A stretch of DNA of 30,978 nt, from NCBI GenBank assembly GCA_043736755.1, contig JAYTBY010000734.1:1-30978 (forward strand). Direction: 5' to 3'. The number at the start of each line of letters is the position of its first letter. The first letter of the stretch is position 1. This DNA is from Planctomycetota bacterium. Its GTDB lineage: Bacteria; Planctomycetota; UBA1135; GCA-002686595. The notes under the pieces are model-generated. The model worked only from the letters and a program-made list of their open reading frames with translations, was not told the DNA's origin and searched no databases. The position numbers and the translations under genes were made by a program. Of this stretch, positions 7,181 to 24,849 are shown piece after piece.

Positions 7181-8332
7181 GTGTCCGACGTCACGAAAGA
7201 ACAGATCCTCGAAGCCCTGCGGCATGTCATCGACCCGGACCTCGGGCGCGACATCGTCAGCCTCGGCTTCGTCACGACGGCCAGCGCCTGCGACGGCGCG
7301 GTGAAGGCCGTCATCAACCTCACGACGCCCGCTTGCCCCGTGAAGGACCAGCTCAAGGCGCAGGCCGAGACGCTGCTGCGCGCCATCCCTGGCGTGAAGG
7401 CCGTGAACGTCGAGATGACGGCGGTGTCTAAAGCTCCGAGCGGCCCCGAGCGCAAAATCGCGCCCGATATCCGTCACATCGTCGCGGTGTCGTCGGGCAA
7501 GGGCGGCGTCGGCAAGAGCACGGTCGCGGTGAACCTCGCGTGCGCGTTGGCGCGGACTGGCGCAACGGTCGGCCTCGTCGATTGCGACGTCTATGGCCCC
7601 GACGTGCCGATGATGATGGGCCTCTCGGGCGAGCCCGAAGCCAGCGGCGGCAAGCTCATCCCCAAAGTTCGACACGGCGTGCGCACGATGTCGATCGGGT
7701 ACCTGCTCGAAGAAGACAAGCCCGTGATCTGGCGCGGACCGATGGTCCACAAGCTGATCGAGCAGTTCTTGGGCGACGTGCAGTGGGGCGCGCTCGACTA
7801 CTTGCTGGTCGACATGCCGCCGGGCACCGGTGATGCGCAACTGTCACTCGCGCAGATCGTGCCGCTGACCGGCGCCGTGCTCGTGACGACGCCGCAAGCC
7901 GTATCCACGTTCGACGTGAACAAGGCCGTCGCCATGTTCAAGCAAGTCAACGTGCCCGTGCTCGGCATCGTCGAGAACATGGCCGGATACGTGATCGAGG
8001 GCCTCGTCGAGGGCGCGAAGTCGGGCACCAAGATCCGCCTCAACGTCGGGGCAGAGGACGTCGTCGTGAACGTCGACATCGAAGGCCGTTTCTCGACCGT
8101 CGTCGACATCTTCGGCAGCGGCGGCGCGCAGAAACTCTCGACGAAACACGGCTTCCCGATCCTCGGCTCGATCCCGCTCGATCCGCGCGTGCGCGTCGGC
8201 GGTGATGCCGGCGATCCAATCACGATCGCGGATCCGAAGTCGCTCATCGCACAGCGGTTCGCGGAGATCGCGGGACGGGTGGCGCAGCGCGTCGCGATCC
8301 AAGCGCACCGGGCGTTGCCGATCCTGCAGTAA
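7181..8332 (+). CDS. mrp: Mrp/ApbC (NBP35 family) Fe-S cluster carrier ATPase with N-terminal FeS-assembly (DUF59-like) domain
   Basis: [64 protein letters not shown]. Confidence 0.93.
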
Positions 8333-8450
8333 GCGTTCGAGTTCATCGTCACGCGAGCCCGTCGTCGCGCGAACAGAGTGCGAGGCGGATCGAGCACCGA
8401 GCTCGCGGCAACCAACTGCGGCCGAGCTAGATAGGCTGTGGCCGGGGAAC

Positions 8451-8510
8451 GCGCGGGTGTGGCGCGCGGGTGTGGCGCGCGGGTGTGGCGCGCGGGTGTG
8501 GAGCGCGGGT
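8451..8510 (+). repeat. 13-bp tandem repeat (GCGCGGGTGTGGC) x4.6
   Basis: Units start at 8451, 8464, 8477, 8490 (ends GA) and a partial unit at 8503. It lies between the convergent mrp and HEPN genes. Confidence 0.95.
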
Positions 8511-9037
8511 CAGCGACCGCGCAGTCCGCGCCACGAGATGGCCGCGAGGCCGAACACGCGCGCCTCGCGGGATGCGCGCATGCGCTCCCAACGTGACATC
8601 GATTCGGCGGCGAGCCAGTGGGCTTGCTCCGCTTCAGGTCGAGTGATCGGCGCACCAAGATCATAGTCGGCCTGATGTCGCATCTTGTGCAGTTCGATGA
8701 AGCCCTTCGCGGCGAACGCGAGATCTTCGGACGTCGCGTCGTGGCCGGCGAAGCAGCGTCGAAGCGGTTCCGGCAGGGACCTGGGCCCCGCGAGGAACCG
8801 TTCGGCACACTCACGCAACGAACCGTGATCGAAGGAACGGGCCAACGCGTGGCGCAGAGCCCGATCGCCGCGACCGGCGCCCACGACTTGAAGACCGATC
8901 TCCTCGATCAAGAAGTGGAACAGCGCGTAGTAGGCTGCGCTTGCAGATCGACGGGTGCTGGCTTGTGCCGGCCGGCCCGCCTCGCGCGTGGCCAGGGCAG
9001 CGGACTGATCGAGGAGGCCGTGATGGAGCTTCTGCAT
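8510..9037 (-). CDS. HEPN-domain protein (UPF0332-like)
   Basis: N-terminal RRSASAAYYALFH and C-terminal LHKMRHQADY (R-X4-Y variant of the HEPN motif). Start at ATG 9037. Confidence 0.7.
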   Translation of the reverse strand: MQKLHHGLLDQSAALATREAGRPAQASTRRSASAAYYALFHFLIEEIGLQVVGAGRGDRALRHALARSFDHGSLRECAERFLAGPRSLPEPLRRCFAGHDATSEDLAFAAKGFIELHKMRHQADYDLGAPITRPEAEQAHWLAAESMSRWERMRASREARVFGLAAISWRGLRGR

Positions 9038-12667: not shown

Positions 12668-12757
12668 GGAGCGTGTGAAGAATTCACACGCGACGCGCCG
12701 CGGGAGCGACGCAGATGGTGTCTGTGAGCGTGTAGGCTCGACTCTTTCACACGCTCT
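12668..12757. mobile_element. 90-bp MITE-like element, copy A
   Basis: Terminal inverted repeats GAGCGTGTGA/TCACACGCTC. It aligns without gaps to 19121-19210 at 67/90 identity. Confidence 0.6.
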
Positions 12758-13836
12758 CAGCCGCGCTTCGCGAGGGCTTCTTCGTACTCCTTCAGCGTGC
12801 CGGCGAGTTGCGGGTCGAGCGCGGCAGCCTTGCGTTGGAACGCGACGGCCTTGTCGAGGTCACCACGCACGAACCACGTGCGCGCGAGCGTGTCGAGGAT
12901 GCCACCGTCCTTCTCCTTCGTGATTTCGACGGCACGAACGGCGAGTTTCGTGGCCAGCTCGGGATTGGGCGTCGCGACTTTGGATTGGGGGTCCACGATG
13001 GCCCACGCGATCGAGTGCAGCGCGCTCGCGGAGTCCTTGCAGGTCGTGTCGAGCGCATCCTGCGCCCACTTGTTCGCGCGATCCATGTCACCCACCTCGA
13101 GCGCCAGGATCTGGTACTTCGCGGCGGCCGCACCGCCGAACTTCTCGACGTCGATTGCGAGCATGTCGTCGAGTGACTTGATCGCCGCCTCCCAGTCCTT
13201 GGCATTCGCAGCCCGGTTCAGCTCTTCCTGGAGCTTCATGCCCCGCGACTCGAGCTCCTTGGCCTTCTTGCTCGCCACAGCGAGTGCGGCGATGTCATGC
13301 TTGCCGGCCACGACGGTCTCGAGCGTCGCGTCGATCGACATCGGATGGCCGATGTAGGCGATCTTGCCGTTGCCGTCGACGAGGAACGCGCACGGGATGC
13401 CCTGCTGCTGCGCCGCGCGCATGTAAGCCGTGTTCGTCTTGCCCGCGTCGTCCCAAGCCACGGTGTACGACATGACGTCGCCCTTGGCCTTGACCATCGT
13501 CTCGACCTGCTCGAGTGAGTTGTTCGGATCCTCTCTCGTCACACCGATGATCGTGAGTCCCTTGTCGGCGTACTTCTTCTGCAGCTCGCTGAGGTGCGGC
13601 ATCCCGACGATGCACGGACGGCACCACGTGGCCCAGAACTCGACGATGTACGTCTTGCCCTTCTGGAAAGCCGCGACGGGCTCGCCCTTGACCCACTTGC
13701 CAATCGCGAGCACGGGTGCGGCGTCACCGACGCTCAGCACGGACGGCGTGGTTTGCGCGGGCGTCTCTACCGAAGCAGACGTGGAGGACGGCGTACCGAG
13801 TAGAGCGGCGCCAAGGAGAGCGGTGCGAAGAAGCAT
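12757..13836 (-). CDS. Exported TlpA-family thioredoxin-like protein with TPR-like C-terminus
   Basis: Signal peptide, VEFWATWCRPC, IPCAFLVDGNGKIAYIGHP and a helical C-terminus (ILDTLARTWF..AVAFQRKA). Confidence 0.9.
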   Translation of the reverse strand: MLLRTALLGAALLGTPSSTSASVETPAQTTPSVLSVGDAAPVLAIGKWVKGEPVAAFQKGKTYIVEFWATWCRPCIVGMPHLSELQKKYADKGLTIIGVTREDPNNSLEQVETMVKAKGDVMSYTVAWDDAGKTNTAYMRAAQQQGIPCAFLVDGNGKIAYIGHPMSIDATLETVVAGKHDIAALAVASKKAKELESRGMKLQEELNRAANAKDWEAAIKSLDDMLAIDVEKFGGAAAAKYQILALEVGDMDRANKWAQDALDTTCKDSASALHSIAWAIVDPQSKVATPNPELATKLAVRAVEITKEKDGGILDTLARTWFVRGDLDKAVAFQRKAAALDPQLAGTLKEYEEALAKRG

Positions 13837-19828: not shown

Positions 19829-20126
19829 GCGCTCCCTCCTGCCTCGATCCCGCGATGGGCCACCGGCGTTCGACGACCAGCCGCGAACGTCCCGCACCCA
19901 GAGCGCGCTCAGGATAGAGCCCGGGAATGGTCTCGGTGAACTGGCCTATCCCCAGATTCCTGCCCACCGCCGGCGTCTCGAACGTCGCCGGAGCCGGCCC
20001 GAGGCGAGTCGTCGTGAGCAACGCGCAGTGAGCGCCCGAAGATCACGACCGCGCGCGACTGGGTCTTCCCGCGCAGTCAGGGCGAGGATCTCGCGGCCGC
20101 GCGGAATGCGGCCGCGAGTCGAGCGA

Positions 20127-21281
20127 TCACTTCGACTTCGTCTTCAGCTCGCCCAGGAGCTGATCGATCGCCGCGTCGAGCTTCTCGCCGCGCACGTTCT
20201 TGAAGCGGATCCGTCCTTCACCATCGAGAACGTAGATCGTGGGCCAACTCGACACGTTCCAACGCGTCGAGATGGGGCCGCTGGTGCTGCCGCCATTCCA
20301 AAAAGAGCGCCACGTGATCTTCTCTTCGACCAGCGTCTTCTTGAGCGCGTCGCGATCCTTGTCGCTGTTGACGCCCACGATCGCGAAAGGTTCACCAGCG
20401 AGACGTTCCACGAGCGACCGCTCGTGCGGGTACATGGCCCGGCAAGGGCCTCACCAATGTCCCCAGAAATCGATGACGACGACTTTGCCGCGGTAGTCAC
20501 TGAGTTTGAAGGCCGTGCCCTCGATGTCCTCGGCTTCGATGTCGGGCACGATCTTGCCGATCGTGAGCTTCTGAAGCTCGAACAGCGCACCTTCTGCGCG
20601 CGGGCCGATCGCTCGACCACGCGAATCCAAGACGTCGGCGTAGTCCTTCGCAACGCGCTCGAGCACCGCGACGTACTGCTTTTCGACAACGTTGGCGCCC
20701 GACTTCCGTAGGGATTCCGAGCGTTCCGCGCCGTGCCGCTTGGCGTGCGTTTCGGCCGAGACGTCTCCGGCCTCGACCGAGCGCAGACCGTCGAGGTCGT
20801 ACTTGACGTGGTCGGCGAGCATGCGGATAGAACGGCCGCGCACGCTGCGATCGCCAGCGTTCTCGGCCAACGTCTCGACACGCGCGCGCGCGTCGGGCCG
20901 TGAGTTCGGACGCAGGCTGTCCAAGAGATCGCCGAGTGCCGGGCTCGCGATGTCCTTCGACAGGAGTTCGTCGAGGTACGAGTCGGACATGCTGGCCTCG
21001 ACGCCGGACGTCACCATCCACACGCGCACGCGGACAGCGAGCTCGCCGCGCGGGTCGTCTTTCATCAGCGCCTTCGCACGAAGCGCGAGTTCGACGCGCT
21101 TCTCATCGAGCGCGTTCTTGTCGAAGCCGGGTTGGCCGACATCCTTCGATGCGGACTCCAGTTCGGCGCGGAGTTCCGCGACGGGGTCCGTGGCGACTTG
21201 GACCGAACCCTGGAGGGCTGGATCCAGTGCCGAAGCCGGCGCAGCGAGCGCCAGCAGCAAGAGCAGTTGGGTGGGTTTCAT
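20127..21281 (-). CDS. Exported TlpA/AhpC-TSA-type redoxin selenoprotein (Sec277, UGPC motif)
   Basis: Track ORFs 20451..21281 and 20127..20435 are one frame separated only by TGA at 20451-20453, reading FWGHW-U-GPC, with UGA at the first Cys of CxxC. It has a signal peptide and a SECIS-like hairpin. Confidence 0.9.
20409..20426 (-). promoter_or_regulatory. Bacterial SECIS-like stem-loop
   Basis: On the minus strand, CACGAGC-GGTC-GCTCGTG. The apical loop starts with GG-U and begins 32 nt after the UGA. Confidence 0.7.
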
Positions 21282-21293
21282 GGCTTGCTCAGT

Positions 21294-22157
21294 CTAATCA
21301 CGCCGCACGGCCGCGAGGATGGATCGCGTCGCGTGGCTCTTGTTCAGGGTGTAGAAGTGGATGCCCGGCGAGCCACCCTCGAGCAGCTTGCGGCATTGCT
21401 TGATCGCGTGCTCGATCCCGGTCGCCATGACGAGCGCGGGGTCGTCCGCGACGCGCCTCAAGCGCTCGAGCAAGTCCTGCGGTATCGAAGCCCCACACAA
21501 CTTCGTGAAGCGCTCGACCTGAGCCACGTTCGTGATGGGCATGATCCCCGGAACGATCGGCACGCGAATGCCGGCCGCGCGTGCGCGGCGGACGAAGTCG
21601 AAGAAGTACTCGTTGTCGAAGAAGAGCTGCGAAATGAGGATTTGTGCGCCAGCGTCGACCTTCGCCTTCGTCCAACGCATGTCGGCGTCGCGATCCGTCG
21701 ACTCGACGTGGTTCTCGGGGTAGCACGCGGCGCCGATCGAGAGTGGCCAGCCCTCCTTCAACATCGCGATGAGTTCGGTCGCGTGGCCCATGTCGCCCGG
21801 TGGCATCGTCGACCCGTCTTTGGGCTGATCGCCGCGCAGCGCGAGCACGTTTTCGACGCCGGCATCGACGAGGCGATCGACGATGAGGCGGATCTCGGCG
21901 CGCGTCGAGCCCAAGCACGTCAAGTGCGCCATCGTGTGGACGCCGACTTCACGCTGCAGCTTCGTCACGACGTCGATCGTGCGGTCGCGCGTGCTACCTC
22001 CTGCGCCGTAGGTGACCGACACGTAGTCGGGCTTCCACACCTCTTGGAGATCGGCGACGGTGTTGAGCAGCGCGCGCGCACCCTCGTCCGTCTTGGGCGG
22101 GAAGAACTCGAAGCTGAACACCGGCCAGCCGCGGCCGTGGAGGTCGCGGACTTTCAC
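21294..22157 (-). CDS. metF: 5,10-methylenetetrahydrofolate reductase
   Basis: FSFEFFPPKT, SVTYGAGG, AHLTC, LALRGD, AACYPE, SQLFFD, PGIMPI, GIHFYTLN. GTGA overlap with the thioesterase stop. Confidence 0.95.
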   Translation of the reverse strand: MKVRDLHGRGWPVFSFEFFPPKTDEGARALLNTVADLQEVWKPDYVSVTYGAGGSTRDRTIDVVTKLQREVGVHTMAHLTCLGSTRAEIRLIVDRLVDAGVENVLALRGDQPKDGSTMPPGDMGHATELIAMLKEGWPLSIGAACYPENHVESTDRDADMRWTKAKVDAGAQILISQLFFDNEYFFDFVRRARAAGIRVPIVPGIMPITNVAQVERFTKLCGASIPQDLLERLRRVADDPALVMATGIEHAIKQCRKLLEGGSPGIHFYTLNKSHATRSILAAVRRD

Positions 22158-22570
22158 GCGGCCTCCTGGATCTCTTCGAACTTCGCGCGAAATCGCGCCG
22201 GCAACTCGATGCTCTTCATGATGCGTAAATCGGTGCACACGGTCGTCATGCGCGCGTCGACGCACAGGACGCCGTCGAGTCGAAACACGTAGCGCAGCGC
22301 GATCGAGGAGCGACCGAGCTTCGTGCAGGTGACGCTCACCTCGGGACGGTCACCGAAGCGCAGCGGCGCTGAAAAATCGACTTCGCTATGCACGAGCGGG
22401 AAGCCGATGCGGTCCTCGAGGAGCAGCTTGTAGTAGCGCACTCCAACGTGGTGCTCCCACAGCTCCTCGTAGACTTCGTGCACGTAGTCGTAGATCCGCG
22501 GGTAGTACGCGATCCCCGCGGGATCGACATGTCCGAAGCGCACTTGGATCGTCGTCGTGAAGGCCGGCAT
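22154..22570 (-). CDS. Acyl-CoA thioesterase, 4-hydroxybenzoyl-CoA thioesterase (hotdog) family
   Basis: VRFGHVDPAGIAYYPR, FPLVH..VDF.APLRFGD, LGRSSI. Confidence 0.88.
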   Translation of the reverse strand: MPAFTTTIQVRFGHVDPAGIAYYPRIYDYVHEVYEELWEHHVGVRYYKLLLEDRIGFPLVHSEVDFSAPLRFGDRPEVSVTCTKLGRSSIALRYVFRLDGVLCVDARMTTVCTDLRIMKSIELPARFRAKFEEIQEAA

Positions 22571-23521: not shown

Positions 23522-24010
23522 GAAATGTGCGCGGAATCAAACCTGCGCTGATGTGCGCTGCCCTCGGTGCGCGTCGGGCGTTGTCCGTGCCCCAAGGCCT
23601 GCTCGTCCTACGGGGTGGACACGGCTCGAGCACGATCACCTTGGCCGTGGCCGCATGCGGCTCGAGCAGGACACGCGTCGCACCCGTCGGGGTCGAATGC
23701 CGCGGTCCCCGAGAGATGTGCGCGGAATCAAACCGCCGCCGGGGCGATCCGAGCTGTCGCAACGCATTGGGCATCGTCGGTGAGCCGAGGCTCCGTCGCT
23801 TCGCGATACGTGTAGATAGCGCATCGTCTTGTACTGCGTCGCGGCGGCCACCTCGGTCCGTGGCCACGCAGGGCGTTGTGAGGACAGGCGCGTTGCTCGC
23901 GCCGACGTCTGACGCCGACGTCTGACGCCGCAGAGCGCCAGAAATGTGCGCGGAATCGAACCGCCGCCGAGGACGAACTGAATCGTCGCGATTTCTGCCC
24001 GATTCCGCGC
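23522..24010 (+). repeat. REP-like repeat cluster upstream of RAYT
   Basis: GA(A/G)ATGTGCGCGGAATC(A/G)AACC at 23522-23543, 23713-23734 and 23941-23962, plus an inverted partial copy CGATTCCGCGC at 24000-24010. Confidence 0.75.
23901..23930 (+). repeat. 13-bp tandem duplication GCCGACGTCTGAC x2.3
   Basis: Units at 23901-23913, 23914-23926 and a partial unit to 23930. Confidence 0.85.
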
Positions 24011-24054
24011 GACCGCGCCGAACGCCGTTCGTCGTGCGAGGGGGAGGCGACTCG

Positions 24055-24849
24055 ATGACTCGCACATCAACCCGAGTCCACCAGCAGCACTCACTCTTTC
24101 CTCGCGGCGGCGCGCGAGAAGGCGCAGGCCGCAAGCCGAACGGTGAGCGCGCTCGGGTTGGGCACGACACTCGGCAGCGCATGTCGCGCCACACTCCCGT
24201 CCACGTCACGACGAAGCTCCTTCCGCGACTCCCGAGCTTGCGCAGCGAACCCGCGCTCACTGTCGCGCGTGAGACTCTCGTCGCTGGCGCGGACAGGTTC
24301 GGATTCCGCCTGGTCGAGTACTCGATCCAGTCAGACCATTTCCACTTCCTCGTCGAAGCGCGGGACGAAGTCGCTCTCGGCCGTGGGATGAAGGGGCTCC
24401 TCGTGCGACTCACGAAATCGCTGAACCGTGCGTGGGGACGGACCGGCCATCTCGTCGGCGATCGCTACCGCACACACGTGCTCCGGACTCCTCGCGAAGT
24501 GCGTCAGGCCCTCGTCTACGTGCTTCAGAACGGCAAGAAGCACGGTGCGCGCTTCCACGATGTCGATGCCTGCTCCTCCGGCCCGTGGTTCGCTGGCTGG
24601 TCGGATCACACGCCGCCAGCGAGCCGAGTCCTGCCGCGAGCGGAATCCTGGCTGCTATCGGTCGGCTGGGTGAAGTGCGGCCTTCTTTCGAAGCACGAGG
24701 GGCCACAAAGTGTCGGTCGATCATCCAACGGAGCCGTTGGGAAGGTAGCGGCTCAGCGAGAGCCGCGTCGATCGGACGCAAGCGGTTCACGCCAGCGAAA
24801 CGAGCTCGCACGAGACGAGCTCGCAGCGGCTCACTTCGATCATCCGTGA
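24055..24849 (+). mobile_element. Y1 HUH transposase, REP-associated tyrosine transposase (RAYT)-like
   Basis: PVHVT, FRLVEYSIQSDHFHFLVEA (HUH), LNRAWGRTG..GDRY and ALVYVLQN (catalytic Tyr). GGAGG RBS at 24043-24047 and flanking repeats. Confidence 0.8.

Follow-up and report, generated by a model that had tools for sequence, protein, structure and literature searches.

A very probable selenocysteine codon in the gene for a predicted exported TlpA/ResA/DsbE-like oxidoreductase of Planctomycetota

One reading frame across an internal TGA

The stretch of DNA analysed here (the window, 30,978 nucleotides) is contig C734 of a Planctomycetota sediment MAG with a size of 4.6 Mb and a completeness of 82%. 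An ORF listing with translation table 11 gave two adjacent pieces on the minus strand, 20451..21281 (276 aa) and 20127..20435 (102 aa). Before any database search, a sequence-only reading had proposed that the two ORFs join in one frame through a single TGA, and this was borne out. The minus-strand frame 21281..20127 contains one internal stop, the TGA at 20451-20453, and its read-through product has 384 residues (...KVVVIDFWGHW-U-GPCRAMYPHE..., with U as residue 277). Pfam thioredoxin-fold matches (AhpC-TSA, Thioredoxin_8 and Redoxin) cover residues 241-367 and run across the TGA, and therefore neither ORF fragment alone is a complete domain. U277 and C280 are the only Sec/Cys positions of the protein. 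The features of the locus are as follows.

20127..21281, minus strand: whole gene of the putative selenoprotein, 384 codons plus the terminal TGA (20127-20129), with the ATG at 21281
21228..21281, minus strand: predicted Sec-type signal peptide, residues 1-18, ending in A-S-A, judged by eye from sequence features
20568..21185, minus strand: predicted all-alpha N-terminal domain, residues 33-238, eleven helices, about 205 residues (AF2)
20130..20561, minus strand: TlpA/ResA/DsbE-like thioredoxin-fold domain, residues 241-384 (Pfam, Foldseek, VIA-align)
20451..20453, minus strand: UGA, very probable selenocysteine codon, residue 277, first position of the W-U-G-P-C redox motif
20442..20444, minus strand: Cys280, putative resolving residue of UxxC and sole Cys of the protein; column invariant in a 23-sequence alignment
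20241..20243, minus strand: Pro347, cis-Pro position (W-P-T), assigned from sequence position; column invariant in the 23-sequence alignment
20409..20426, minus strand: putative SECIS hairpin, 7-bp stem with GGUC apical loop (CACGAGC-GGUC-GCUCGUG)

The metF gene (MTHFR, window 21294-22265, minus strand) ends 12 nt upstream of the redoxin start codon on the same strand. This adjacency was present in 7 of 7 same-genus genomes (including loci L021-L026) and absent from more distant relatives. Other neighbours encode a GIY-YIG protein, a creatininase-family protein and an OPT transporter. No functional link to the redoxin emerged from this neighbourhood, metF included, and no link to genes of cytochrome c maturation or copper chaperones was found in it. 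Another ORF of the window (23944-24849, plus strand) has a weak match to IS200-like Y1 transposases (22.9 bits, just below the cut-off). Starting 9 nt past the stop codon of the redoxin gene, an 11-bp G+C-rich hairpin (window 20090-20118, minus strand), not followed by a U-run, may be a terminator or stabiliser.

Homologues of the redoxin were collected by a six-frame search of 40 related genomes. An orthologue was present in all seven same-genus genomes (62-83% identity, aligned over residues 1-384), each time with exactly one internal TGA, and the search also returned dozens of paralogues with exactly one TGA. At the column of residue 277, the loci of these relatives have TGA in 50 cases and Cys in most of the other 10. 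In a set of GTDB loci, assigned by name to Planctomycetota, Pirellulaceae, Gemmataceae, Fimbriiglobus and others, the codon is TGA in 47 and TGC/TGT in 16. The two sets are overlapping samples that together hold about 95 homologous genes with TGA. An alignment of 23 sequences has Cys in this column in 21 of the 22 full-length database homologues. The placement of the UGA at the attacking Cys of a WCxxC motif, and the expectation that homologues carry TGA or Cys at the site, thus agree with both locus sets and with the full-length homologues.

Could the TGA be a nonsense mutation or a sequencing or assembly error, and the locus a pseudogene or a pair of small genes? Table-11 gene calling does yield two ORFs, and the 276-aa fragment is stored as a protein in public databases. 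The split that had been predicted for standard annotation also recurs among close relatives, whose public gene calls are fragments of 274-287 aa that end at the UGA; the public labels of the fragments of about 276 aa are “redoxin/peroxiredoxin” or “hypothetical”. However, the same TGA recurs in the roughly 95 homologous genes, which come from different families of the phylum, the frame downstream of it is conserved in homologues, and the thioredoxin fold spans it. Positions 20451-20453 are moreover covered by Logan contigs from three sediment metagenome samples, one of which is probably the source of the assembly. All three agree on an unchanged TGA with no other letter, and neither TGC nor TGT was seen. 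Pieces from one metatranscriptome run (X20) were only 90-95% alike and lay away from the UGA, and they speak neither for nor against transcription. Together with the Sec machinery and the SECIS described below, the shared TGA, the conserved frame, the fold and the metagenome contigs effectively refute a pseudogene or an error, which we regard as very improbable.

Domain architecture and the type of oxidoreductase

An AF2 model built with 22 homologues had a pLDDT of 91.7 and a pTM of 0.83. The N-terminus is hydrophobic (mean Kyte-Doolittle value of 2.26 over residues 6-18), and residues 1-30 were modelled with low confidence (pLDDT about 50). The eleven helices that follow correspond to the long helical N-terminal domain that the sequence-only reading had described. 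This domain had no match in Pfam and no informative match in searches with Foldseek against the PDB, VIA-align wide and the ESM Atlas. Its combination with a redoxin is also seen in AFDB clusters that carry ResA or redoxin annotations, and in the full-length Cys homologues.

The C-terminal domain could be assigned more closely. Foldseek against the PDB gave TM scores (by target) of 0.86-0.88, and the VIA-align Z scores were 19.7 for 3gl3 (DsbE), 18.9 for 2f9s (ResA), 15.7 for 1kng (CcmG) and 14.4 for 1jfu (TlpA). Superposition on the ResA/DsbE/TlpA chains gave an rmsd of about 2 Å over 128-136 residues, which is nearly the whole of these chains. The domain has the N-terminal extension and the central insert of the ResA/DsbE/TlpA type. 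The W-U-G-P-C motif occupies residues 276-280, and a helix starts at residue 278 in the AF2 model, which places UxxC at the N-terminus of helix 1.

Among the NCBIfam models, the best matches were ResA, TlpA and DsbE, all far under their cut-offs (TlpA, NF047696, 59.1 bits against a cut-off of 230; ResA, NF002854, 63.3 bits against 170). No selenoprotein-specific NCBIfam model reached its cut-off. Since the scores are under the equivalog and subfamily cut-offs, the protein belongs to the superfamily (cd02966) but is no orthologue of any named enzyme. The description “TlpA-type”, given from sequence alone, hence applies to the fold and the superfamily, and fails as a statement of TlpA orthology. 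Like the Cys-type extracytoplasmic thiol-disulfide reductases ResA, CcmG/DsbE and TlpA (2f9s, 3gl3, 1kng, 1jfu), the protein combines this fold with the position of the CxxC motif and the cis-Pro column, and it may be exported as they are. It differs from them by the Sec in place of the first Cys, by the additional helical domain and by the scores under the equivalog cut-offs.

Sec is typical of peroxide-reducing enzymes such as GPx, and a true selenoprotein at this locus might thus be a thiol peroxidase of the peroxiredoxin-like kind and not a disulfide reductase. The top Pfam match is indeed AhpC-TSA (PF00578, 61.6 bits against a gathering cut-off of 26), a model that also covers TlpA-like proteins, and Bcp-type peroxiredoxins are among the structural neighbours (Z 15-16). 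However, ResA/DsbE/TlpA-type chains outrank all peroxiredoxins in both Foldseek and VIA-align, and the top NCBIfam matches point the same way. The peroxidatic motif of Sec-containing peroxiredoxins is PxxxTxxC(U) (PMC13188914). It is absent here: the residues before U277 are D-F-W-G-H-W, with a Gly and no Thr at position -3 and no Pro at position -7, and the motif itself is the thioredoxin-like W-U-G-P-C. We therefore favour a disulfide reductase and consider a peroxidase unlikely.

The recoding signal and the Sec machinery

The hairpin at 20409..20426 begins 24 nt past the UGA, with its loop 31 nt past it, and has a predicted MFE of -10.5 kcal/mol (z -3.97). A 2026 review describes the bacterial SECIS (bSECIS) as a loop of 3-9 nt on a stem of 4-16 bp, with a G in the first two loop positions, 16-37 nt between UGA and loop, and an MFE of -7.5 kcal/mol or lower (PMC13188914). 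The 4-nt GGUC loop with its G in first position, the 7-bp stem, the distance of 31 nt and the folding energy agree with all four of these criteria. At gathering thresholds, no Rfam family, and thus no curated family of bacterial SECIS elements, matched anywhere in the window. The SECIS call was therefore built on the consensus model together with comparative data.

The comparative data are stronger evidence for a SECIS than the fold and the criteria in the single sequence. In 49 distinct Sec-type sequences, the six codons of the hairpin are nearly fixed (for example CAC in 47/47, CGG in 36/37, TCG in 39/39 and CTC in 48/49). In nearby columns for Arg, Leu and Ser, the commonest codon is used in only 39-70%. 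This codon fixation within the hairpin supports a constraint at the RNA level. In the alignment, 92% of the cells are paired, a value that was reached by none of 500 shuffles and by no slid register. Two compensatory pairs were found (C-G to A-U in L079 and G-C to C-G in L059), along with one further change to G-U. A second sample added a change from C-G to U-A in L107 and G-U wobbles in L103, L129 and L128. As the hairpin hardly varies, the covariation signal comes from these few changes.

In more divergent paralogues, the top two pairs are open, leaving a loop of 6-8 nt in which the loop G is kept. In most Cys-type paralogues, the hairpin is missing and the codons are different, also in the case of a similar peptide (HERELV). 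One such paralogue lies 6 kb away in the window (12757-13836, minus strand); it is Cys-type and TlpA-like (W-C-R-P-C), has a weak C-terminal TPR match and is without a SECIS-like hairpin.

Three further structures were considered and rejected. In the sequence analysed here, a small hairpin can fold immediately behind the UGA (GGCCC...GGGCC, 20436-20450), but it is only 72% paired in the 49 homologues, no better than shuffles. It is a by-product of the Gly-Pro-Cys-Arg-Ala codons and was left out of the signal for lack of conservation. Long-range GGGG/CCCU pairing proposed by RNAalifold (columns 5-8 with 79-82) joins invariant Trp-Gly and Pro-Phe codons and has no covariation. An extended lower stem was seen in the single-sequence fold and was no better than shuffles (z -0.8).

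The GGUC loop of the hairpin matches the apical loop of fdhF. The helix of fdhF begins near its UGA, some 11 nt ahead of the minimal upper hairpin. Unlike that helix, the stem found here starts 24 nt past the UGA, and no bulged U is evident. The hairpin shares with the E. coli fdhF-type bSECIS model its location within the ORF, the small G-containing apical loop and a distance of 16-37 nt from the UGA (PMC13188914).

A selenocysteine codon at this locus had implied selA, selB, selC and selD elsewhere in the genome, and all four were found in the MAG with scores above the curated cut-offs: selA with 467 bits, a full-length selB with 338 bits over model positions 1-581, selD with 318 bits, and tRNA-Sec (selC) with 73.9 bits and the anticodon TCA. 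The selD gene (contig C75 of the MAG, G000:C75:3022-3966, minus strand, locus L009) carries its own in-frame TGA where the catalytic Cys would be encoded (...NCAG-U-AAKMP...), and therefore SelD itself is a selenoprotein. The same contig also carries selA (7360-8730). In at least four further genes of the MAG with a thioredoxin fold, TGA is the codon of the first CxxC residue, namely in C781:1787 (W-U-GPC), C808:5316 (W-U-GAC), C389:3400 (W-U-GPC) and C362:527 (C-U-INC). The hairpins downstream of the TGA in these four genes are unlike the invariant one.

Could the UGA instead stand for one of the standard amino acids (Trp, Gly or Cys), through a changed genetic code or general read-through? 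One homologue (L142) does have TGG, a Trp codon, at the site. However, TGA is the terminator of 7 of the 9 Pfam-supported genes of the window and is in-frame in none of the other eight. Neither selA nor selB contains internal stops, TGA occurs in the homologues once and solely at the Cys column, and a dedicated tRNA-Sec and SelB are present. A reassigned or leaky UGA is the least credible of the alternatives and can almost be dismissed.

The Sec-redoxin interpretation of the sequence-only reading is thus supported by the machinery, the TGA/Cys column, the metagenome contigs and the fragmentary gene calls. We conclude with high confidence that the locus is a genuine Sec-decoding gene. It is equally probable that the two adjacent ORFs are a single gene for an exported TlpA/ResA/DsbE-like oxidoreductase, in which Sec replaces the nucleophilic first Cys of WCGPC.

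SelB-dependent Sec insertion at UGA-277, directed by the GGUC hairpin, is supported by the computation. SelB loaded with Sec-tRNA(Sec) would bind the 7-bp hairpin 24 nt past the UGA, and Sec would be inserted without termination. By analogy with the protein family, the product would then be exported via its signal peptide. In the periplasm, the selenolate of U277 would attack a substrate disulfide or another oxidised thiol, possibly a sulfenate or a peroxide, forming a U277-C280 selenylsulfide. The selenylsulfide would be re-reduced through a membrane electron shuttle of the CcdA/DsbD type; a DsbD_TM gene (DsbD/CcdA-type membrane electron shuttle) was found in the genome. By the same analogy, selection or docking of the substrate is probably the role of the helical N-terminal domain.

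In bacteria, decoding of UGA with a SECIS competes with termination by RF2. Sec insertion might accordingly be inefficient or selenium-dependent, with the helical fragment of 276 residues as the main product and the UGA as a selenium-sensing switch, and the N-terminal helical domain does look like a self-contained fold in the AF2 model. However, residues 241-276 of such a fragment would be a broken thioredoxin domain with half a beta-strand, and conservation peaks in the downstream catalytic domain. A switch of this kind appears improbable, slightly more so than the peroxidase discussed above, and production of the full-length Sec oxidoreductase is the preferred reading.

Known relatives and distribution in Planctomycetota

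UxxC selenoproteins of the thiol-disulfide-isomerase-like or TlpA-like kind have already been catalogued (PMC13188914; PMC4807772, Table S9). The protein described here resembles them in its TlpA/redoxin-type thioredoxin fold, in the Sec at the first position of UxxC, in the existence of Cys homologues, and in a SECIS that lies within the coding region just downstream of the UGA. It differs from them by the N-terminal helical domain of about 205 residues and by a 7-bp GGUC hairpin that is near-invariant across Planctomycetota. The gene thus adds a further member to the known UxxC selenoproteins and points to no new mechanism.

Planctomycetes are absent from the text of the 2026 review (PMC13188914). 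Selenoprotein candidates described as “thiol-disulfide isomerase-like thioredoxin” were listed for planctomycete P1 in a 2016 genome paper on planctomycetes from Porphyra (PMC4807772, Table S9). They come from the same phylum and represent the same kind of protein; the P1 candidates had been split in two by IMG and have Cys in the closest NCBI match. The likeness is drawn from the descriptions, and in contrast to the two P1 candidates, for which bSECISearch gave no SECIS, the gene found here has a clear SECIS that comparative data support.

The distribution of the signal was assessed with an exact pattern, consisting of TGG-TGA, six free bases, TGY, fifteen free bases and the first 17 bases of the hairpin. 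Matches were present in 63 of 401 sampled Planctomycetota genomes, belonging to 46 of 287 genera, with 1-6 copies each. The reversed control pattern had 0 matches in the same sample of 401 genomes. The near-invariant combination of UGA and hairpin is thus a simple and specific probe for such genes.

Some Cys-type homologues have kept the hairpin. In L140, L141 and L143, the Sec column holds TGC/TGT, and in L142 it holds the Trp codon mentioned above; in all four, the hairpin is letter-perfect. From their sequences, L140-L143 appear to be former Sec genes that were converted by a recent change of one base, with the SECIS remaining as a “fossil”. They fit the dynamic exchange of Sec and Cys that has been published (PMC1794560). 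Pairs of Sec and Cys genes that share an intact hairpin are clean material for a comparison of Sec with Cys, and for a bacterial SECIS the locus likewise offers a clean comparison.

A broader scenario may be put forward, although we hold it only tentatively and would sooner bet against it than for it. The redoxin with helical domain and UGPC motif might be an ancestrally Sec-containing, phylum-wide family of Planctomycetota that grew to several paralogues per genome. Recognition by SelB would have kept the 47-nt cassette from UGA to hairpin near letter-identical, and the Cys members would have arisen by repeated single TGA to TGY changes that left fossil SECIS elements. If this were true, the family would be a natural series for what is gained by Sec over Cys in an exported reductase.

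The main value of the present analysis lies in the correction of annotation. The gene and many of its relatives are held publicly as fragments of about 276 aa without the catalytic domain. As a consequence of these fragment entries in public protein sets, the redox proteins and the selenium use of Planctomycetota are under-counted.

We also note that the summed word depth of the Logan sediment contigs rises from about 12 to 72-101 in window 20400-20477, and that contigs break there. Such a rise would be expected if the cassette of about 47 nt is common to many organisms or paralogues in the community.
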